A DNA stretch of 64,000 bases from Bacillota bacterium (GTDB taxonomy: Bacteria > Bacillota > UBA4882 > UBA10575), in NCBI GenBank assembly GCA_012735195.1, contig JAAYIC010000077.1:10471-74470 (forward strand). The letters run 5' to 3'. The translations under genes were made by a program, and so were the position numbers. Below are positions 24,936-46,125 of this stretch, piece by piece (the stretch's first letter is position 1; every line of letters starts with the position of its first letter). A model generated the notes under the pieces. The model did not search any database. It was not told where the DNA came from and worked only from the letters and a program-made list of their open reading frames with translations.

Positions 24936-25835
24936 TTAAACCAACCGGGTCAGCAATTCGTCCCGTTCCCCGTAAAGAAAATCGATGACCGGGATCTCAA
25001 GCATAGTGTAACACCCGGGTTTCTGGCGGAGCCCGGCCCTGGCGGCGGCGACCATGATCTGTGCGGTCAAAGCCGGGTTATTCACCCGCATCTCGTAACG
25101 GAAGCGCTGATTATGGGTCTCTCCGGAAACCCCTTTTCTTTCCATCATCACCCCGTGTCCCGTATCGATTAGCTTCTCAACCCGGTTCACCGGGATAACC
25201 CTGGTTTCGTCTTGTCGGAAATAGGGATCCGCCTTAATCGCCTCCGCCACCCGCTGGAACTCTGCCTCCTCCTCCAATTCGACATAAACCATTCGCCGGT
25301 GGATGCCCGCACCAGCCGGTATCGTCATGGCAAGGGCATTTTTTACCCCGGGTATCGCTTTGGCCGCCACCGTATGTCCCATCGACATCCCCGGTCCGAA
25401 ATTGGTATAAGTAAGGCCACAAGGAGCCATAAACTCAAAGATCCCCCGGATCATGGAGTCCGTTCCCGGATCCCAGCCGGCGGAGATCACGGAAACACAA
25501 TTGTGCTCCCGGGCCACCGGGTCCAACTCTTTCTTCAGGCGAACCAATTCCCCATGGATATCGTAGCTGTCCACCGTATTTATTCCGGCGGCGAGGATTT
25601 CCCGGGCGTACTCCGGGACCACCCGGCTGGGCACGCAAAGCAAAGCCACATCGACTTTTCCCAGTTCGCTGATGGAACCTGCTACGGGATAATCTTGCAA
25701 TTCCGCCGGGGTCTTGTCTAAGGAAGCGGTCCTCCTTACCACCCCGGCGAGAACGAAATCAGCCGCCGCCTCCACCGCCTCCAGGGCAAAACGGCCGATA
25801 TTTCCATAACCGACAATCGCGATCCTATGTTTCAA
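24936..25835 (-). CDS. ddh: meso-Diaminopimelate D-dehydrogenase
   Basis: 299 aa. [11 protein letters not shown] Rossmann start, SAGWDPG and [10 protein letters not shown] blocks typical of Ddh. Confidence 0.8.
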
Positions 25836-25889
25836 CAGGTACTCCCCCTCACAAAGATCATAACGGCTTCAACTCCACTACCGCATTTT

Positions 25890-25919
25890 ATTATACCATT
25901 TGCCGCCCGGCCCGGACAA
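25890..25919 (-). promoter_or_regulatory. Candidate sigma-A promoter of ddh (extended -10)
   Basis: Minus strand: TTGTCC-N18-TATAAT, with TG two nt upstream of the -10. Confidence 0.4.
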
Positions 25920-26198
25920 CAACTTCCCGGGACAGAACCCTTCCCCCATCTAGTTGGCAATTACGGAACATAACAACGACTCTTTCAAACCATTACCGGC
26001 TTTTGGAGAGAAGAAACCGGCCGGTTGTTGAAAAATTACTCATGCCGTCGCCGGTATTTACCGATATTATATTATGAAACCAAAAAATATAGCTGAGCTT
26101 AATTATGCTTATATGCTTATATACTTATTTGTACTGTGGCAGCCAACAAAACCTGGCAGAAGCCGCAAGAAACGCAGATTACAACTGGGGGGTAAAAA

Positions 26199-27848
26199 AT
26201 GAAGAGCTCCACTCGGCGTTTGGAAAAATACTGCTTTTTGTTAATACTTTTCGGTTGCTTTCTGGCCGTAACGGGCGGACGCATTACCGCTAGGGAACCG
26301 GTTTTGCCCGCTGATTTAAACTATGTTGATGTTGAACTCCAAGACATATTCCGGGATTTGGCCGAAACCGGCGGGTTCCGGGTGCTTTTTGCCCACCCGT
26401 TCCAGAAACGGGCGACCATGATTATTGCTTCCGGGTTACCCATAAAAAAAACTATTGCAGATATAGCCGCCAACCACGGGCTAAACTTAAAATGGATGGA
26501 TACAGGCACCGCCGTGATTGGCAGCAATGACTCCCTGGCTGTGGCAAACACCTCCGACAGCAACCTGCATGTCCTCTCCTTACACTCCGTTTCCCCGGTG
26601 ATGATGGCAGAGGTTTTGGAGACAGTGCTTCCCAGCCATAAGATCCGGTATGATTTTAAAGGCAATAATATTGCTGTCATGGCCAGTCCGCTGGAGATGG
26701 AGAATATAAAAGAATTAGTTAATAGATGGGATATGGAAAAGCCCATCATCTCAGTGGCGGTTGAGGTGGTCGAAGTAACCCTGGATTTCCTGCGGGAGTT
26801 GGGCATAAAGAACCCGGCTTCTCTACAGATGAAGATTTACCCGATACCGGAGAGGCTGGCGGCAACTGTTGCACAGGACACAGGGAAGAACTCCTTGGTC
26901 AGTTATGAAGTAATAAACCTGAATAACAATGAAGAGAGGCTATTCTTCGGCGACCGGATACCGGAGGTCCCGGAAGAAGAGATGGCCACGGCCGCCGGTA
27001 ACCAAGCCGGTTATGTGGATGTGGGGACCACCGTTGATTACCGGTTTGAAGTTATCCGCCGCCAAAAGGACGAGTTGCTCCTGGAACTCCGGGCCAGGGT
27101 GGAGATGGTTACCGGCTCCGATCTTGAGCCCGGGCAGAGGGAACTATGGGCGACAGTCGGCTTGCTCCCGGGTCAAACTGCCATGCTAACGGGTGCTCTC
27201 AAACGCAGCGAGTACCTGCAGATGAAGGCGTCCTCCTATGAATTGCCCTTTTTAAGTTCTCTCTTCGCCGCGGCCGGCGCCGGCAATGATCTTCCTGTGG
27301 AGGAGACGGCCACTGTGATCTTCCTGACCCCGTCTTTTCAGGAAAAAGCGGAAAAAACGGCAGACCGGCAAGGTTCACGTCAGACGGAACCGGAACCTGA
27401 ACTCCTAAAACCTGCAATATCACTAGTACCGGAAGTACCTGAAATACCTGCGGTACCCGAAGTGCCGGAAATGCCGGAAAGCACCGGAACGGAACAGGAA
27501 GATACACCCAAAACAACTACCACTGATATCCCGTATATCATAAAAAAATCTGAGACATTATACGGGATCGCCAGAAAGTTCGGGGTCAGCGCGCAACAGC
27601 TCATCGCAGCCAATCGCCTGAAAAACCCCGGGAAAATAAAAACCGGCGCCACACTGATCATTCCTGTTCCCAACGAATTCATCTATACGGTAAAGACCGA
27701 CGAGACCCTTTGGCGCCTGGCGAGAAGATACGGGACAACGGTGGCGGTCTTAAAAGACCTGAACAGTCTTGCCGGCGATGAAATAAAAGTCGGGCAGAAA
27801 CTGGTCCTACCCGTCCCTGCAGCCAACATCGTCAATCCACAGTTTTAA
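26199..27848 (+). CDS. Secretin-like protein with Pro/Glu linker and two C-terminal LysM domains
   Basis: Signal peptide. N0/N1-like modules (VELQDIFRDLAETGGFRV...; LHVLSLHSVSPVMMAEVLETVL). Secretin-type core starts ISVAVEVVEVTLDFLRELG and ends ELPFLSSLF...VIFLTPSF. VPEVPEIPAVPEVPEMPE linker (9-nt DNA repeats at 27426-27479). Two LysM domains: YIIKKSETLYGIARKFGV... and YTVKTDETLWRLARRYGT... Confidence 0.65.
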   Translation: MKSSTRRLEKYCFLLILFGCFLAVTGGRITAREPVLPADLNYVDVELQDIFRDLAETGGFRVLFAHPFQKRATMIIASGLPIKKTIADIAANHGLNLKWMDTGTAVIGSNDSLAVANTSDSNLHVLSLHSVSPVMMAEVLETVLPSHKIRYDFKGNNIAVMASPLEMENIKELVNRWDMEKPIISVAVEVVEVTLDFLRELGIKNPASLQMKIYPIPERLAATVAQDTGKNSLVSYEVINLNNNEERLFFGDRIPEVPEEEMATAAGNQAGYVDVGTTVDYRFEVIRRQKDELLLELRARVEMVTGSDLEPGQRELWATVGLLPGQTAMLTGALKRSEYLQMKASSYELPFLSSLFAAAGAGNDLPVEETATVIFLTPSFQEKAEKTADRQGSRQTEPEPELLKPAISLVPEVPEIPAVPEVPEMPESTGTEQEDTPKTTTTDIPYIIKKSETLYGIARKFGVSAQQLIAANRLKNPGKIKTGATLIIPVPNEFIYTVKTDETLWRLARRYGTTVAVLKDLNSLAGDEIKVGQKLVLPVPAANIVNPQF

Positions 27849-27892
27849 GCCTAATGCCAAACAGGCAAATAACCGAAACAGTATGTTCCAAA

Positions 27893-27981
27893 AGCGCGTA
27901 TGCGTAGTGTATGCGTAAACTCGCATACCGAACCTGCATACGCGCTTCTGCATGCACGCGCGCTTCCATGTACACGCGCAA
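27893..27981. repeat. Degenerate ~11-18-nt tandem repeats rich in alternating purine-pyrimidine palindromes
   Basis: Minus strand: gcgcgtgtacatggaa / gcgcgcgtgcatgcagaa / gcgcgtatgcaggttcg / gtatgcgagtttac / gcatacactac / gcatacgcgc. Confidence 0.75.
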
Positions 27982-28027
27982 AGATTATCAGAACAGGATT
28001 GAGGCCTATAACTGCATCAAAATCCAA

Positions 28028-28672
28028 TTATTCAGTTCCCGCCAGGAAGTTCTTGACCTCATATTTCTGGGTCAACTCCTGGATCCAGGAAGTATATTCC
28101 GTCTGCATTTTTTGGGCGAATAAAAGGTCCGCAATTTTTTCCTTGTTTTCTTTGTAATCCCCGTTTATCTCTTCCTTGTTCTCTTCGAAATACTCCTTTA
28201 TCTCCTCTTCACTAACGGAAATCCGCGGTGTCAGCAGTTTTTTTACGGTAAGATCTTTAACCAGGTTCTTTTTGACTTCATCAATGGAATAGGGACTCGT
28301 CTCCAAAACCTGGGTAAATTCTTCTTTTCCGCCATAATACTCGTAGTAATCAGCCAATTCTTCCTCGATCTCTTCCTCCGAAACCACAATCTTCTCTTTC
28401 TTGGCTTCAAGGTCGATGAGTTTCTCAGCAATCAAAATGCTTAATCCTTGTTGTCCTGCTTGTTTTAGCAAAAGATCAGTCAACTGCTCCCTGGTGATTT
28501 TTTCTCCTTCCACCGTAGCCACCACATCCGGTACCCCGGTAGACCCGCCTTTATGGTTGACATTAGCATAAACAACCGCCAAACCGGAAACGACCAACAG
28601 GATAATTAAGCCGGTGGCAATACGCTGTTTCGTTCTTTTTTTTGCCGGGTTGAACTGCATTTTCCCAACCAC
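28028..28672 (-). CDS. SurA N-terminal-domain-like membrane-anchored chaperone-like protein
   Basis: 214 aa. TM anchor, then a helical acidic domain (VATVEGEKITREQLTDLL...) as in the PrsA/SurA N-terminal region. No PPIase motif seen. Start uncertain. Confidence 0.45.
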   Translation of the reverse strand: MVGKMQFNPAKKRTKQRIATGLIILLVVSGLAVVYANVNHKGGSTGVPDVVATVEGEKITREQLTDLLLKQAGQQGLSILIAEKLIDLEAKKEKIVVSEEEIEEELADYYEYYGGKEEFTQVLETSPYSIDEVKKNLVKDLTVKKLLTPRISVSEEEIKEYFEENKEEINGDYKENKEKIADLLFAQKMQTEYTSWIQELTQKYEVKNFLAGTE

Positions 28673-40534: not shown

Positions 40535-42028
40535 CTAATCTATGTTGCTTCTGCGCTTGACGCCCACTGCCATAAAAATACCCGGCGAATCCCAATTTTC
40601 CGCAATAACGCCTATGCGTAACCAAAGATCCCTCTGCAAACGCCAGACCGCCTCGAGCCGCTGCGCAGACCACCCGGGATTACCGGTTAAAGCCAAAGCC
40701 AGCTCCAGTTCGTCCAGATCCCATTCCAGGCCGGCCCGCCAGTAGCTCTTTGCCAGTTCGGTCCGGCCGTCAAGCAGAAAGACCAACGGGTACCAGGTTA
40801 CAAAGGCACGTACATGAGGGGAGAGTTGTACGTTATCAGAAACCCCCGTCATCAGGACGGGAGTGGCCACGGGTCCTAACCCCCCGGCAAGAGCGGCATC
40901 GAAAAATGTGCCGGACCCGGCCCACAGTTCCCTTTTTATCCCGATAAAATAGGTCTTCGGGGCCCGGGCGGAAACCTCCAGATCGCCCGCGTCACCCAGA
41001 GGCATGGTAAGACGCACGGCAGGGTTTAGTTCTCTCCCGGACGCGGATCCGCTACTGATCAAGCCGGTCTCAAGGATCAGTTCCTTATCGGGGCTCTGCG
41101 GAGAATGGGGGGCAAGGAGTCTCAATCCATCCAGGGAAGCCATGGGGATAACCGGCATCTCCGCCAATTGTTTCAGCCTAAACGGAACAGCACTCAACAC
41201 CAGGGCAAAAACCCGCTGTTCTTTCAACCCCGCAGTAAAAAGCCTTCTTTCTTTCCGATCCATCGTCCGGCGCATGAAGGCAATGATCTCCGGCTTTCCC
41301 CCGGCAGAGTTGACAGTGGTGGCCAGGGCAGCCTTTTCACCGTGATCCTGGTTTTCCCGCAGAAAAGAGACCTTCGTCTCCACCCGGCCGGTTTCTCTTT
41401 GGATAAAAACCGGGGTAATCTCCAGAAGGTAATTCTCGTCCTTATCATAGTATTCCGGATAAATAGCGCCGGTTTTCCACTTTACCGGCCGGCCGGGTAC
41501 GGCGATTATCCATGCCTCGGATGCCCCTTCATAACTACTGGATTCCGGTACACCGGGGTGTTTCATAAACCCATTTTCCACTAAAAAACGGACCCCGTTC
41601 TCGCCCCGGAGAATCTGGGGAGTTGCCACTAAACGGTAACTCTCCGCCGGTGTGCCGGTTCTGACTTCTCCGGAAAACACCCAGCCCCAGGTGGAGGTGG
41701 TTCCCAATTCCACGATCCTGAGGGAATATAAGATGAAGAGGGTGGCCGCATCGGCCAGGTTTTCCCTGAGAGCGGCCAAAACCTCTTCATCGGTTACCGC
41801 CGGGGCGGAAAGAAAATAGATCTCTTCTTCTTCATCATAGATCAGCCATCCATTAAAACCGGCGGGCATCTCCAGAACTCCGGGAGAAATAAACCCTAAC
41901 GGGATAAAGACAAGATCCGGCGTTATCTCTGTCTTCTCCGGGCCTTCAACCGCCCCGGCACCTGTGACCGGTAGCGTAATTAAGGCTAAAGCCAACACCA
42001 ACCCGCAGAGCCGGTGGTTTTTAATCAT
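40535..42028 (-). CDS. Secreted beta-rich protein of unknown function (497 aa), last gene of the secretin locus
   Basis: Start MIKNHRLCGLVLALALITLPVTGAGA (signal peptide) inside an ATGATTAA overlap with the upstream stop. The track ORF carries a 46-codon spurious extension. The C-terminal ~170 aa show alternating amphipathic strands (YFIGIKRELWAG..., VTWYPLVFLL, WRAGLEWDLDELELALALTG, LWLRIGVIAENW). Confidence 0.6.
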   Translation of the reverse strand: MIKNHRLCGLVLALALITLPVTGAGAVEGPEKTEITPDLVFIPLGFISPGVLEMPAGFNGWLIYDEEEEIYFLSAPAVTDEEVLAALRENLADAATLFILYSLRIVELGTTSTWGWVFSGEVRTGTPAESYRLVATPQILRGENGVRFLVENGFMKHPGVPESSSYEGASEAWIIAVPGRPVKWKTGAIYPEYYDKDENYLLEITPVFIQRETGRVETKVSFLRENQDHGEKAALATTVNSAGGKPEIIAFMRRTMDRKERRLFTAGLKEQRVFALVLSAVPFRLKQLAEMPVIPMASLDGLRLLAPHSPQSPDKELILETGLISSGSASGRELNPAVRLTMPLGDAGDLEVSARAPKTYFIGIKRELWAGSGTFFDAALAGGLGPVATPVLMTGVSDNVQLSPHVRAFVTWYPLVFLLDGRTELAKSYWRAGLEWDLDELELALALTGNPGWSAQRLEAVWRLQRDLWLRIGVIAENWDSPGIFMAVGVKRRSNID

Positions 42029-43229
42029 TTTCCGCCACAACCTCCGCTGAAATAAAAACCAGTAATTCACTTTCCTTCTGCTCCTCCCTGCCTTCCCGGA
42101 AGAGAAGGCGCAAAAGCGGAATCCTCCCAAGAACCGGGGTTTGCGATGTTCTGTTCCTGTCTTCAACTTGGGTCAAGCCGCTGACCAGAACGGTCTGACC
42201 GGGAATAAGGCGTAGCGTTGACCCGAACTCCGCCATTCTTACCACCGGTTCACTGCCGTTATTGTCCACGAAATAGCTGACCGTCTGGGTCATCTCCAAC
42301 TCGATACGGTCTTCGAAGACCCGGGGAGTAACCTTCAGACCCGTGCCGGCCTCAATCTTTTCGATCTGGTCGTAATTCTCATACACATCCAAAATCAAGA
42401 CCCGTTGTTCCCCGACAAAAAGGTCGGCGGTCTTCCCGTCCGCCACCTGAATCACGGGGTCGGCATGGATTTTAGCTGCGCCTTCCTTCTCCAAGGCCCG
42501 GATCTTGGTATGCAAAAGGCCAAAAATATCGGTTTCAATACCAATAGCTCCAGGGGCCAGATCCAAAATTGTCGTCCAGTCCGGTTTTTTTGCCAGACTG
42601 GAAGTAAACTCCCAGTTAAAGAGGTCGATTCCCCATTCCTTGATCACTTCTGTCTGTACTTCGGAGACTAGTGCCTTCACCCTTACCTGCGCCCGGGGGG
42701 TGTCGATCTTTTTGAAATCCGCAATGATCCGCTCCTTTAACCCACGGGGCGCAGTGATAGCCGCCACGTTTGCCTCCTGGTCAAAACGGACGTTTTGGCG
42801 GAAAGCATCAGGGAGCAACGCTTCTACAGTAGAGACCTTTACGTTCTTAAAGAAGAAAAATTCTGTTTCGGCGAGATCCGCAAAAACCCTGTTTCGTGGG
42901 TCAGCCAGCCCTACCAGATAATAATCGTCGACCTTACGGTAGCTAAACCCCCCTCCTGCCAGCATCATCTGGAGCGCTTTCTCTAAAGGTGTGTCCTCCA
43001 GCTCCAAGGTGACCGTTCCCGTAATGTTTTCATCCATTACTATATTTACTCCCGTCTGGAGGGCTACCTCCCGCAAGGCTTCCCGAAGTTCCATCTCAAA
43101 AAAGACAATTGTGACTAAAGGCTCCGCTTCCTGTTCTGCCCGGACCGACAAGGGTGTTGTCGCCGGTCCGGGGAGGAAAAAGATGAAGAAAAAAGCGCAG
43201 ATCAGGAAGATCATCCGCCGACTCAACAT
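42021..43229 (-). CDS. Minimal secretin (type II/III secretion system secretin-family protein), 402 aa
   Basis: Signal peptide. N0-like block (FFEMELREALREVALQTGVNIVMDENITGTVTLELEDTPLEKALQMML), N1-like block (FFFFKNVKVSTVEALL...ITAPRGLKERIIADFKKID). Secretin core QVRVKALVSEVQTEV ... TPVLGRIPLLRLLFRE ... ELLVFISAEVV. Confidence 0.7.
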   Translation of the reverse strand: MLSRRMIFLICAFFFIFFLPGPATTPLSVRAEQEAEPLVTIVFFEMELREALREVALQTGVNIVMDENITGTVTLELEDTPLEKALQMMLAGGGFSYRKVDDYYLVGLADPRNRVFADLAETEFFFFKNVKVSTVEALLPDAFRQNVRFDQEANVAAITAPRGLKERIIADFKKIDTPRAQVRVKALVSEVQTEVIKEWGIDLFNWEFTSSLAKKPDWTTILDLAPGAIGIETDIFGLLHTKIRALEKEGAAKIHADPVIQVADGKTADLFVGEQRVLILDVYENYDQIEKIEAGTGLKVTPRVFEDRIELEMTQTVSYFVDNNGSEPVVRMAEFGSTLRLIPGQTVLVSGLTQVEDRNRTSQTPVLGRIPLLRLLFREGREEQKESELLVFISAEVVAEND

Positions 43230-43319
43230 ATCCTCTCACCTCTTACTTTCTTCACGGGCGTGAGCGCGTGAAGAATCAATTTAACCCCTATTATCACGCG
43301 CCCGTACATGGACGGGCCT

Positions 43320-44849
43320 TTATAGAGGTCCGGCCATCGTCAGGGCTGCCAATTCCTTCTTTTCTGCCTGGATTGAAACTTCCATTTGGTAGTCGCCAGG
43401 GGGAATTCTCAGGGACGTCCCTTGCAACGTTGAAAGCTTGCCCGGCAGTACCGGTGTTTTTTCCTCGCCTGCTCCGGATAATTCCACTATGGTAACGGTC
43501 CTTCCCTCCGGATCTTTAACCACGACCCGGCCTGAGGGGAAAATTTTGATATTACCGGTATTTTTAAGCACGAGAGAGAAAAGCACTTCTTCACCCAAGC
43601 GTTCGCTGGTAAAATTAAGCATTTCTGCAGTATACTGATGGTCTCCGGCAACCACCGCTTCAAGCGGAATCATCTGTTCATAAAGGAGCTCCCCATCAAG
43701 CTTAAAAGCGTCTACTCTCAAAAAACCGTAATTTCCTTGTATCTGTGCATCCCTGGGAAAATGAACCGTGGTAATTACCGTCTTTTTCTTCCCCGGTTCC
43801 AACAGAAACTGATTGTCACCCCGGATTGTGAACTCTGTATGTTCAAAGATGGAATAGGCGTAACCGTACTCCAGGTTAACCGGGGTCAAACAGAGAACAC
43901 AGGCCTCTCCGGAGGTGTTTTTAATAGTCAAGGCCCGGCTGGAGACGGTCCCCGGGCGTCCGGCGAAGCTCAGTTCATCCAAAGATACTTGCAGGGCGGT
44001 CTTTTGCGTTTCTGGAAAACTGAAATCCTCTGCCCCAATTTCCACGGTTTTGGTGACTATTAATTGTTTTCCTGCGGCATAGCGGAAGAACAAACGGAGC
44101 TGATACTCTCCGGGCGGCAAGTATTTTCGAACCGTACCAATGTACAGCAATTTACTAAAGGGATACATCAAAATATCCTGTTGGGCATGGTCCCATAGCT
44201 TCTCCGGACGCAGTTCCACCCTTTCCACCAGCCGTCCTTGTCCATCCCGTACCGTGGCTTCGGCGGCAGTTGGATAATCCAAAGCAGAAGTATTCCGGAC
44301 CAGAGCCTGCAGGACCGGTTCCTTCTCCTCCCCGGCGGTCAAGGTGAATTCCTCTACCTCCGCCGTCGGGCGCAGGCCCGGTCTTTCCACCTTAATCCGC
44401 AGGCGGACGGCGAAACGGAAATGAATGGCGATTTCAGCATCTTGTTGTATCTCCGGTTCCACCATAATCGTGACCATATGTGAGCCCCTCGCGTCAAAAG
44501 GCACCCGTACCCTGCCGGTGACCTTTAGTTCCTCCCCGGGGATAAGGAGAAGCTTGTTTTCATCCAGTTCAACCCAGTTAATGGCCGGGTTTCGTAAAGG
44601 GTCGCCTTCTTCAAAGACCAGTCCTCCGTCCAACTGTTGCAACGGCTGATAAAGGCTGGCATTGATTAAGGTCTTTGTCTCTTCCGGAGAGAGGAGGATC
44701 GCAAAATCCTTGACTGCTCCCGGTTCAAGGTCCATCTCGATAACCAACGGCCGGAGACCAATAGCAAGAACGTCCCCGGAAAAACAAAAAAGCAAAATCA
44801 ATACTACAATCGTAAAACCCATAATGCGCAGCATAAAGACCACCTTCAC
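43320..44849 (-). CDS. Secreted four-module Ig-like/beta-sandwich protein (509 aa), chaperone- or scaffold-like
   Basis: Signal peptide (...SGDVLA|IGLRPLVIEMDLEPG). Four ~120-aa modules each end in a PG..(K/E).V...V..P.....G.Y-type pattern (IPGEELKVTGRVRVPFDARGSHMV; PPGEYQLRLFF; EPGKKKTVITTVHFPRDAQIQGNYGF; PPGDYQMEVSI). Alternative ATG start at 44834. Confidence 0.55.
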   Translation of the reverse strand: MKVVFMLRIMGFTIVVLILLFCFSGDVLAIGLRPLVIEMDLEPGAVKDFAILLSPEETKTLINASLYQPLQQLDGGLVFEEGDPLRNPAINWVELDENKLLLIPGEELKVTGRVRVPFDARGSHMVTIMVEPEIQQDAEIAIHFRFAVRLRIKVERPGLRPTAEVEEFTLTAGEEKEPVLQALVRNTSALDYPTAAEATVRDGQGRLVERVELRPEKLWDHAQQDILMYPFSKLLYIGTVRKYLPPGEYQLRLFFRYAAGKQLIVTKTVEIGAEDFSFPETQKTALQVSLDELSFAGRPGTVSSRALTIKNTSGEACVLCLTPVNLEYGYAYSIFEHTEFTIRGDNQFLLEPGKKKTVITTVHFPRDAQIQGNYGFLRVDAFKLDGELLYEQMIPLEAVVAGDHQYTAEMLNFTSERLGEEVLFSLVLKNTGNIKIFPSGRVVVKDPEGRTVTIVELSGAGEEKTPVLPGKLSTLQGTSLRIPPGDYQMEVSIQAEKKELAALTMAGPL

Positions 44850-44921
44850 ATCTCTTTAATGGCATGGACAAGGGGGGCAAAACCGCCACCCCTTATCCAC
44901 CACGCTTGGTTAGTTCAGTTT

Positions 44922-45437
44922 TTACCAGGCAAACACCGTGACGGTGAATTTAGCCTTGTACTTGCCGGCCGCTTGCGAATAGACCTCTCCCAGTTTTCCT
45001 TTGACATCAAGGAGATACCATTTACCCTCTTGTCCTTGGACAGGCCATCTGGCATCCACTGGTCTAAAGGAATCGGTCCGGAGAATTTGTTCGCCTCTGT
45101 CATCGCCGTAGCGGGCAGCCCGCTGAATCTTGGCCCTGGTATAGAAGGTGTCACCTTTGAGTTTGTGGGTGAAATCCTTCTGGTTCAGCTGCATGCCGAT
45201 CTTGGTATTGGAGACCACATAAAAATAATCTCTCCAGGTATGCTCTTCACCCGCATAACCCACATAACAGAGTATAGGATTATTGGGGTCATTCAAATCG
45301 CGGATCTCCGCATACGGATGGACGATCGCCCGAACCTCTACGGTATCACTGTCCAACTTCTTCTGGGCCAGACCGGTGCTGGCTAGTGCCAGTACGAGTA
45401 CAAAAGCCAAGCCTAAGATGATAAGCCTCTTCATCAC
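44922..45437 (-). CDS. Small secreted beta-rich pilin-like protein (171 aa)
   Basis: Strong AAGGAGG RBS. Signal peptide MMKRLIILGLAFVLVLALASTGLA|QKK. C-terminus ...AAGKYKAKFTVTVFAW resembles the terminal strand of SCPU/Csu/DUF4402-type fimbrial subunits. Followed by a stable hairpin (44870-44894). Confidence 0.55.
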   Translation of the reverse strand: MMKRLIILGLAFVLVLALASTGLAQKKLDSDTVEVRAIVHPYAEIRDLNDPNNPILCYVGYAGEEHTWRDYFYVVSNTKIGMQLNQKDFTHKLKGDTFYTRAKIQRAARYGDDRGEQILRTDSFRPVDARWPVQGQEGKWYLLDVKGKLGEVYSQAAGKYKAKFTVTVFAW

Positions 45438-45579
45438 TCTTTTCCTCCTTTGCTAATTTTCAATTCTGAACAGTGTTTTTTGCACGCGTGCGTGCTATGA
45501 TTAATCCTACCCTGCTCCGGCAACCACCTCCTCCGGTCAACCGGCGCTATGTGCCCTTTGCTCATTGATTTTTCACTGA

Positions 45580-46125
45580 TTACTGTGAAGTGACAGTTGC
45601 GGTAATGCTTCCCCGGTACTCGCCCGCCGGTTGTTCCGAAACTTCATCTATGGCGACTCCCCCGTAAATTTTGAAACGTTGTGTATCACCATTCAACGGT
45701 AACACCAGGGGAGGACCACCCGGACGAAAACTCCAAGCTTCCCTCTCCGGCCAATCTACCCAATAAACCACGTTTAACTCGGCTTTCTTACCGCGGGTCC
45801 GGGAATAAAGGGGGGCGGCAGAAAATTTTACCAAGGCCGGGCCTCTCACCTGGACATAACAATGCCCGGGTCTTTTTTCACGGTAAAAACCCTTTGCCCC
45901 GTTGATTTCAAACCGGGGCGCGGCGACCAGAACGGAAACGTATGCCTCAGCAGGCTCTGTCACGACTTTTTTGACCTTAAAAGCCGCTTCACATGCGCCC
46001 GTACGCGCAACCCACTGCCCGCCGGTGCATTCCTGGATTTGGAAGATTATCACCGGTAGCATCAAGACCGCTGTGAAGATAAGAAGCCGGATTAGCCGCA
46101 CCCACGCACTTAACCCTGTAACCAC
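45580..46125 (-). CDS. Small secreted beta-rich pilin-like protein (181 aa)
   Basis: GTG start 10 nt after AAGGGGG. N-terminal hydrophobic segment. C-terminus ...VSEQPAGEYRGSITATVTSQ has the same terminal-strand pattern as the 171-aa neighbour. Confidence 0.5.
   Translation of the reverse strand: MVTGLSAWVRLIRLLIFTAVLMLPVIIFQIQECTGGQWVARTGACEAAFKVKKVVTEPAEAYVSVLVAAPRFEINGAKGFYREKRPGHCYVQVRGPALVKFSAAPLYSRTRGKKAELNVVYWVDWPEREAWSFRPGGPPLVLPLNGDTQRFKIYGGVAIDEVSEQPAGEYRGSITATVTSQ

Follow-up and report, generated by a model that had tools for sequence, protein, structure and literature searches.

A secretin homologue with two LysM domains in a diderm Bacillota lineage, apparently maintained after the loss of its gene cassette

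The window analysed here, a 64,000-nucleotide stretch of a Bacillota bacterium genome (GenBank assembly GCA_012735195.1, contig JAAYIC010000077.1, positions 10,471 to 74,470), carries at positions 26199-27848 of its plus strand a complete open reading frame (ORF) of 549 amino acids (aa), which joins a secretin-like N-terminal part to two C-terminal LysM domains. The gene belongs to a subfamily labelled FAM, whose members stand either alone (the orphans, including the window gene) or in an operon; all features of the gene listed below lie on the same strand. A ribosome-binding site, GGGGGG, can be read at 26187-26192, 6 nt before the ATG, and is kept in the alignment of orphan and operon-linked orthologues. 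Residues 1 to ~31 (26199-26291) read as a Sec-type signal peptide with a basic n-region, a hydrophobic core and an ITA-RE boundary; residues 6-24 form a helix in the AlphaFold2 (AF2) model, at a low predicted local distance difference test score (pLDDT). An N0-like domain follows (residues 40-108, 26316-26522), recognized from the AF2 model, where the block-mean pLDDT is ~73-90, from alignment with the N0 domain of PilQ proteins bearing LysM domains (PilQ-LysM) and from Foldseek, where its matches are the N-terminal domains of XcpQ/GspD (4ec5 and 3ezj). The next domain, N1/N3-like and of the ring-building type (residues 122-178, 26562-26732), is delineated by a sub-threshold Secretin_N match, NCBIfam matches and a confident AF2 model.

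The divergent secretin core (residues 183-381, 26745-27341) begins with ISVAVEVVEVTLD, ends in ELPFLSSLF...VIFLTPSF and is collinear with secretins in the alignment, its landmarks running ISVAVEVVEVT ... FFGD ... RELWATVGLLPGQTAMLTG ... ELPFLSSLF ... TVIFLTPSF. It is connected to the LysM domains by a low-complexity Pro/Glu-rich linker (residues 382-443, 27342-27527) that varies in length among orthologues, has a pLDDT <50 over residues 381-439 and contains a 9-nt tandem repeat encoding VPEVPEIPAVPEVPEMPE (27425-27489; 7.1 copies, 71% matches by Tandem Repeats Finder). LysM domain 1 (residues 446-489, 27534-27665) is matched by Pfam PF01476 and PF23473 and by LysM structures in the PDB, and LysM domain 2 (residues 496-538, 27684-27812) by PF01476. 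The two LysM copies score 105.9 bits with PF01476 against a cut-off of 20.9, the region matches PDB LysM proteins at up to E 3.8e-17, and block-mean pLDDT is 80-89. The protein closes with a conserved tail, LPVPAANIVNPQF, that alignment and hhalign both find to be common to it and PilQ-LysM. The layout proposed by an earlier sequence-only reading, namely an N0/N1 region, a Pro/Glu linker made from 9-nt repeats and two LysM modules within one ORF, is borne out by the ORF itself, Pfam, Tandem Repeats Finder and the alignment.

On family-level evidence the protein can securely be regarded as a secretin homologue. Searched on its own, its core gives no match to the Pfam Secretin family (PF00263); the sole secretin-related Pfam match of the protein is to Secretin_N and, with 14.7 bits, stays below the cut-off of 28.2, and the NCBIfam matches to GspD/PilQ/SctC are weak and limited to residues ~141-211. 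Taken literally, the central region of this sequence does not score as Secretin, an outcome that the sequence-only reading had named as telling against itself. The family as a whole behaves otherwise. A search of 5.8 billion proteins returned only 17 relatives, at 46-77% identity, the full-length ones all with the same architecture; among 16 aligned orthologues, 13 match PF00263 (E<=0.01, best E 5.9e-14) and 11 match Secretin_N. With E-values between 5e-6 and 6e-5, the family profile picks out the secretin domains of XcpQ, EpsD and GspD (for XcpQ, residues 403-569 at E 5.3e-6), and hhalign against the PilQ-LysM alignment reaches 100% probability (E 4e-70) over 492 columns, from N0 through the final residue.

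Structural comparison is consistent with this assignment. The AF2 model, with a mean pLDDT of 64, is confident for N0 (40-108), N1 (122-178) and both LysM domains and weaker for the core (183-381). When it was compared to the PDB with Foldseek, the top 31 matches were all secretins (PilQ, GspD, InvG, BfpB and pIV), each at a probability of 1.00, the best being Vibrio cholerae PilQ (6w6m, E 1e-12); global TM-scores are low owing to the extended monomer model. Two alpha/beta domains lie ahead of the core, and the N-terminal domains match those of XcpQ/GspD/EscC. Degenerate core motifs are still present in the alignment (...FFGD..., R-E...G-Q-T..L-T-G, ..LPFLSSLF.. and ..VIFLTP..). The PF00263 score is also weak in the operon-linked orthologue L059 (25.6 bits), so that weakness is not a symptom of decay after the loss of neighbouring genes described below; it is a trait of the whole genus-level subclade. 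The secretin claim of the sequence-only reading is upheld by the family profile, hhalign and Foldseek, and finds no PF00263 match in the sequence itself; of the HMMER searches it had proposed, PF01476 came out clearly, PF00263 gave nothing and Secretin_N stayed below its cut-off.

LysM domains on a secretin are widespread among the relatives of this organism. The PilQ-LysM architecture is found in ~60 protein clusters at 90% identity, including one from the cultured Hydrogenispora ethanolica, whose protein is annotated merely as 'GspD/PulD secretin' and which has, as far as seen, only the PilQ-LysM type. An exhaustive profile search, covering 1.84 billion cluster representatives, found a few dozen full-length secretin+LysM representatives, among which the FAM subfamily accounts for 2 full-length ones. 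In this BamA-bearing diderm Bacillota class, the type IV pilus (T4P) secretin PilQ normally ends in a LysM pair. No paper describing the secretin-LysM fusion was found in a full-text literature search, an absence from the library searched that is no proof. A secretin tethered by LysM is thus unusual, as had been claimed, relative to the literature, and not as a peculiarity of this gene. The proviso that the architecture might already be common as a T4P PilQ equivalent turned out half right: it is common for PilQ, and this gene is not PilQ.

In trees built without the linker and LysM columns, the secretin-LysM proteins form one clade, set apart from other secretins at 99-100% support and made up of a PilQ group and a second group (100/100). 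In other genomes, members of the second group (P0139, P0141) are stand-alone genes with aroE on one side and comFB on the other. FAM is nested in this group and recovered as monophyletic (100/100), its long stem measuring 0.85-1.77 substitutions per site; the orphan copies are in turn a nested clade within FAM (99/96 support). FAM is a separate, fast-evolving subfamily, distinct from the PilQ. End-to-end homology with PilQ-LysM, the last residue included, shows that the LysM fusion was not newly made and was inherited from an ancestral secretin-LysM protein. The 402-aa secretin encoded elsewhere in the window, at 42021-43229, falls outside the secretin-LysM clade, among other secretins. The paralogy that had been proposed between the two is remote only (22% identity, BLASTP E 0.003), and the organism's genome has a closer paralogue in the PilQ-LysM gene of contigs C105/C113.

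That genome (2.13 Mb in 131 contigs, estimated 94% complete) has as its relatives uncultured 'Bacillota bacterium' genomes, mostly from anaerobic digesters. It encodes BamA/Omp85 (121.7 bits; among the control genomes the model matched diderms only), and an outer membrane can therefore be expected. Four secretin-like genes are present, where at least two had been anticipated: the 402-aa gene at 42021-43229, the canonical PilQ with two LysM domains, the orphan on the plus strand at 26199-27848 and a 643-aa ORF on the minus strand of another contig (C128:3994-5925), between aroE and comFB. The PilQ gene lies at C105:2383-3873, after pilM, pilN, pilO and a further small ORF; its frame runs off the end of C105 and resumes at the start of C113 (in reverse complement). 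The two ends overlap by ~85 residues with a few amino-acid differences, and the assembly was probably split there by strain variation. The protein scores 127.5 bits with PF00263 and ends in an acidic linker and two LysM domains, and the complete operon, as seen in the relative L005, comprises minor pilins, PilM-N-O-P and a PilQ of 651 aa with two LysM domains. PilQ-LysM proteins from such pilMNOPQ operons score strongly as Secretin (131 bits). The 643-aa protein has a signal peptide, N0/N1-like and core-like segments, a long acidic linker and two LysM domains, of which Pfam recognizes the LysM domains only; clearer secretin-LysM genes (P0139, P0141) take the same aroE-comFB position in other genomes of the class. 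Its branch of 2.2 substitutions per site and odd composition make its placement inside the PilQ clade unreliable.

Whether the T4P might lack a secretin of its own, a check suggested by the sequence-only reading, can be answered in the negative: the pilus has its own PilQ-LysM within pilMNOPQ. The window gene is neither encoded with pilM, pilN, pilO and pilP nor the sole pilus secretin, as a PilQ would be; its neighbours are diaminopimelate (DAP) dehydrogenase and SurA_N-like genes on the opposite strand, with no pilMNOP beside it. The whole genome has a single PilB/PilT-type ATPase pair (C4:25181-27203) as against four secretin-like genes, which points to secretins being used without a type IV filament motor.

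The genomic context of FAM genes in relatives sheds light on the solitary position of the window gene. In L001, L003, L054/55 and L059 the FAM secretin is the last gene of a tight, same-strand cassette of five. The first two genes encode secreted beta-rich proteins of ~157 and ~180 aa, the third a periplasmic, chaperone-like protein of 274 aa that resembles WxLIP and has two Ig domains, and the fourth a protein of 1,052-1,094 aa (~1,090 aa below) whose N-terminal domains are Ig-like and which also has two CarboxypepD_reg domains and, at the C-terminus, a pair of LysM domains; the secretin-LysM gene comes fifth. In its LysM pair, the ~1,090-aa protein shares 44-58% identity with the window secretin and 33-38% with PilQ. 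L003 and L004 (JBLNDC01), on which the cassette and secretin-LysM genes of this lineage of Bacillota are found, are labelled 'Bacteroidota bacterium MAG109', probably through mis-assignment or a contaminated bin.

The cassette of L059 occupies exactly the site of the window gene: P-II and DAP dehydrogenase genes lie on one side, SurA_N-like, response-regulator and DUF4130 genes on the other, and the flanks are identical. None of the four genes preceding the secretin is present in the window or in two other lineages (L051-53 and L056-58). What remains is a relic of the 3' end of the ~1,090-aa LysM gene, on the plus strand at 25986-26172 (~190 nt), found by blastn and by alignment of the three orphan lineages. 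It keeps a piece preceding LysM1 (...KNY..YFTDII...) and the start of LysM2, and is interrupted by two internal deletions and a stop. By blastn, window positions 25986-26087 correspond to 7006-7105 of L059, 4707-4788 of L001 and 4901-5000 of L002, all within the big gene; the upstream spacer of the window gene measures 363 nt and the second relic piece reaches ~26172. The internal deletion junctions are identical in the alignment of the three orphan lineages. One ancestral deletion of ~5.5 kb removed the four partner genes. The sequence-only reading had treated the gene without its genomic context; it is the lone survivor of a deleted five-gene cassette.

The nature of the cassette can be approached through its third protein. 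The family profile of the 274-aa protein has a single PDB match at E<0.01, to WxLIP of Enterococcus faecium, a protein of chaperone type from the WxL pilus system (9i25/9i1y, E 0.005). Its AF2 model (pLDDT 62.5) consists of two beta-sandwich domains, and with Foldseek the top three matches of this model are WxLIP (E 2.6e-13), followed by classical chaperone-usher chaperones at ~1e-7. No WxL, DUF916 or DUF3324 domain is found by Pfam at E<=10 in any cassette protein, and at the same threshold the small subunits show no meaningful match as WxL, SCPU or DUF4402 proteins. The WxLIP link, drawn from profile and model comparison, may be taken as a lead and not as membership. A classical usher was considered and rejected for the ~1,090-aa protein: Pfam finds in it only CarboxypepD_reg, Ig-like and LysM domains, and its PDB profile matches are only LysM and a sialidase Ig-like domain, so that 'usher-like' would be a guess from size and position.

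Two loci that remain in the genome are related to the lost cassette. The 274-aa protein weakly matches the N-terminal half of a 509-aa protein encoded in the window (43320-44849, minus strand) at E 4e-8, and it also matches a 273-aa protein of a third fibre-type locus, on contig C108, at E 2e-13. The C108 locus (C108:58845-64810) encodes four small secreted subunits (169, 183, 162 and 197 aa), this 273-aa WxLIP-like two-Ig protein and, convergently, an 889-aa protein to which the 1,094-aa cassette protein is co-linear. It has neither a secretin nor a LysM domain, and its type of 889-aa protein is present in 20/20 genomes of the taxonomic family.

The orphan shows signs of purifying selection. 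By pairwise NG86 estimates, the ratio of nonsynonymous to synonymous substitution rates (dN/dS) among orphan pairs is 0.28-0.33 overall, with 0.23-0.27 for N0/N1, 0.25-0.36 for the secretin core, 0.45-0.56 for the linker and 0.11-0.19 for the LysM domains, the most constrained part of the protein. Operon-linked pairs give overall values of 0.27 (L001/L059 and L001/L002) and 0.16 (L054/L003). The orphans have diverged to a synonymous distance (dS) of 0.34-0.50 with zero stops or frameshifts, their frames being full-length in three lineages. Intact frames in at least three diverged lineages, together with a dN/dS of ~0.3, indicate that the orphan is still functional, and it appears to be selectively maintained. 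The locus thereby offers a natural experiment: deletion of the partners, with the secretin kept by selection, argues for a function that would not need the cassette.

Taken together, we consider it probable, with considerable room for doubt, that the product of the gene is a lineage-specific secretin, exported to the outer membrane, anchored to the wall by LysM and orphaned yet maintained. Such a protein would leave the cytoplasm by Sec export and insert into the outer membrane as a multimeric ring. Its C-terminus, the site of the pilotin-binding S domain in secretins of type II secretion systems (T2SS), is extended instead by the disordered ~60-residue linker and two LysM domains; in a ring of 12-15 subunits, 24-30 LysM modules would reach down to the peptidoglycan on flexible tethers. 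The constrained N0/N1 region suggests that a periplasmic partner is still docked. In the ancestral cassette the secretin probably served as outer-membrane exit or anchor for the fibre subunits.

Several observations weigh against this interpretation. The protein's own core has no PF00263 match and a pLDDT of only ~50-76 in AF2, which leaves an intact gate and barrel putative. A dN/dS of 0.3 denotes only moderate constraint. FAM-level matches among 58 genomes of the class are confined to the gene's own genus (three genomes) and one other genome. A tblastn search of its own genome found no other copy of the lost cassette genes, so the partners are gone, and a scan upstream of the gene found no plus-strand sigma-70-like promoter, counts being at the level of shuffled sequence. 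Finally, L007:5990-6786 (Bacillota bacterium UBA11021) is a decayed FAM copy that has lost the N-terminus and the core and has a stop after N1, with LysM still readable. This remnant is nearly identical to the intact P0015 from another sample, and its decay implies that the gene is dispensable in some backgrounds.

Some of these points would suit an orphan that is a functionless leftover, heading towards a pseudogene after the loss of its operon: its partner genes are deleted, its core lacks a Pfam Secretin score, the L007 copy has decayed and the subfamily is missing from most of the taxonomic family. Against this, three lineages that share one deletion have since diverged to the dS given above with their frames full-length, when neutral drift would be expected to give, as a rough estimate, ten or more stop-creating changes per lineage. 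Moreover, the orphan dN/dS is close to that of two of the three operon-linked pairs, the third being lower, and the weak Pfam score is shared by operon-linked copies of the same genus such as L059. We regard decay as improbable. Somewhat more credible is the proposal that the channel function has been lost and the protein kept as a structural tie between outer membrane and peptidoglycan, a ring with LysM feet. The LysM pair and tail are the most constrained part, and four secretin-like genes to a single ATPase pair would fit roles independent of a motor. To our knowledge, diderm Firmicutes have no tethers of the Lpp/Pal type. Nevertheless, constraint on N0/N1, the domains through which secretins dock with their inner partners, is as strong as that on the core, and absence from most relatives would be odd for a general envelope tether; this proposal seems unlikely to us, if less so than decay.

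The two remaining alternatives assign the orphan to a machine encoded elsewhere in the genome. It could be a T4P or competence (DNA-uptake) secretin, a PilQ/HofQ equivalent encoded away from its machine, as homology to PilQ-LysM might suggest; its nearest relatives outside the family sit between aroE and comFB, which hints at a competence link for that clade. Yet the single type IVa pilus system has its canonical PilQ-LysM in pilMNOPQ with a strong PF00263 score, the aroE-comFB site is already filled by the C128 gene, and the operon partners of FAM in relatives are non-pilin subunits, not pil or com genes. Such a role is very improbable, the least credible of those considered here. Alternatively, the orphan could serve in trans the paralogous C108 locus, which encodes no secretin and whose proteins are homologous to those of the lost cassette (the 273-aa to the 274-aa protein, the 889-aa co-linearly to the 1,094-aa protein). 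This is weakened by the distribution of the two: the 889-aa protein is found throughout the family and FAM in its own genus only, so the C108-type system evidently works without FAM. We give service to C108 about the same slim credence as decay.

An exported, wall-anchored and maintained secretin, which is the interpretation we prefer, has partial counterparts in better-known machines. TsaP, a protein with a LysM domain and a disordered linker, forms a ring around PilQ and acts in trans (10.1101/2020.05.29.123786). The systems of Neisseria, Myxococcus and Pseudomonas resemble the window protein in combining a secretin ring with LysM through disordered linkers and in tying the pore to peptidoglycan. 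They differ in that TsaP is a separate protein encoded elsewhere, whereas LysM here lies in cis on the secretin C-terminus; in addition, the window gene lies outside any pil operon and encodes a core that has diverged beyond the reach of the Pfam Secretin model. Other solutions rely on the N-terminal AMIN domains of PilQ, and FimV also uses LysM (PMC5285504). The AMIN domains of proteobacterial PilQ and the FimV/ExeA/GspB helpers are alike in that peptidoglycan binding positions and braces a secretin machine (PMC5285504), but AMIN is N-terminal and has a different fold, and the helpers are separate proteins, in contrast to the C-terminal LysM pair of the window protein. Binding through LysM would hold the pore in place and brace it, doing in cis what TsaP does in trans and what the N-terminal AMIN domains do for proteobacterial PilQ. 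The closest likeness is to the PilQ-LysM proteins of the same class, which share the architecture and homology from end to end, C-terminal tail included; those sit in pilMNOPQ operons with strong Secretin scores, while the window gene is long-branched, was formerly part of another cassette and now stands alone.

The lost cassette itself invites comparison with the WxL/Elr pili of monoderm Bacilli. There, donor-strand exchange guided by the chaperone ElrE, a DUF916/DUF3324 protein, builds the WxL pili (10.64898/2026.10.17.759780), and the system is essentially confined to Bacilli according to the same preprint. The likeness lies in a WxLIP-like 274-aa protein beside small beta-rich secreted subunits. 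The differences are that the cassette has no Pfam WxL, DUF916 or DUF3324 domain, no C-terminal membrane anchor on the 274-aa protein, no sortase and no LPxTG protein, that its host is diderm, and that a secretin and a ~1,090-aa protein of outer-membrane type are encoded as well. That the lost cassette encoded a WxLIP-like chaperone also puts the secretin locus at 40535-46125 of the window, which lacks an ATPase, in a new light; this locus may be a diderm relative of WxL/Elr pili rather than, or besides, Csu-type pili.

A broader and distinctly speculative scheme, which we think has some chance of being right but more of being wrong, is that in diderm Bacillota wall-anchored secretins were recruited from ATPase-driven machines as exits or anchors for fibres assembled with WxLIP/ElrE-like chaperones, in motorless cassettes and possibly by donor-strand exchange; the orphan would then have been kept as a portal or anchor that works without a motor and is shared by the remaining paralogous fibre loci. 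If this were true, the protein would be a secretin outside every known secretin-using system (T2SS, type III secretion, T4P/Tad/Com and filamentous phage), and the fibre loci would be the diderm equivalent of the WxL pilus recently described in Gram-positive bacteria. More generally, this class of bacteria solves the anchoring of secretins to the wall in cis, and the design has multiplied into at least three subfamilies, linked to PilQ, to aroE-comFB and to the cassette. This is relevant to the bracing of outer-membrane machines in diderm Firmicutes, where envelope tethering differs from that in Proteobacteria.

As for the surroundings of the gene, an Rfam search over 25700-28100 yielded no credible RNA element. 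The spacer between the convergent secretin-LysM and SurA_N-like genes, in which Rfam matches are only chance-level miRNA, contains an 18-nt tandem repeat in 2.6 copies at 27935-27979.

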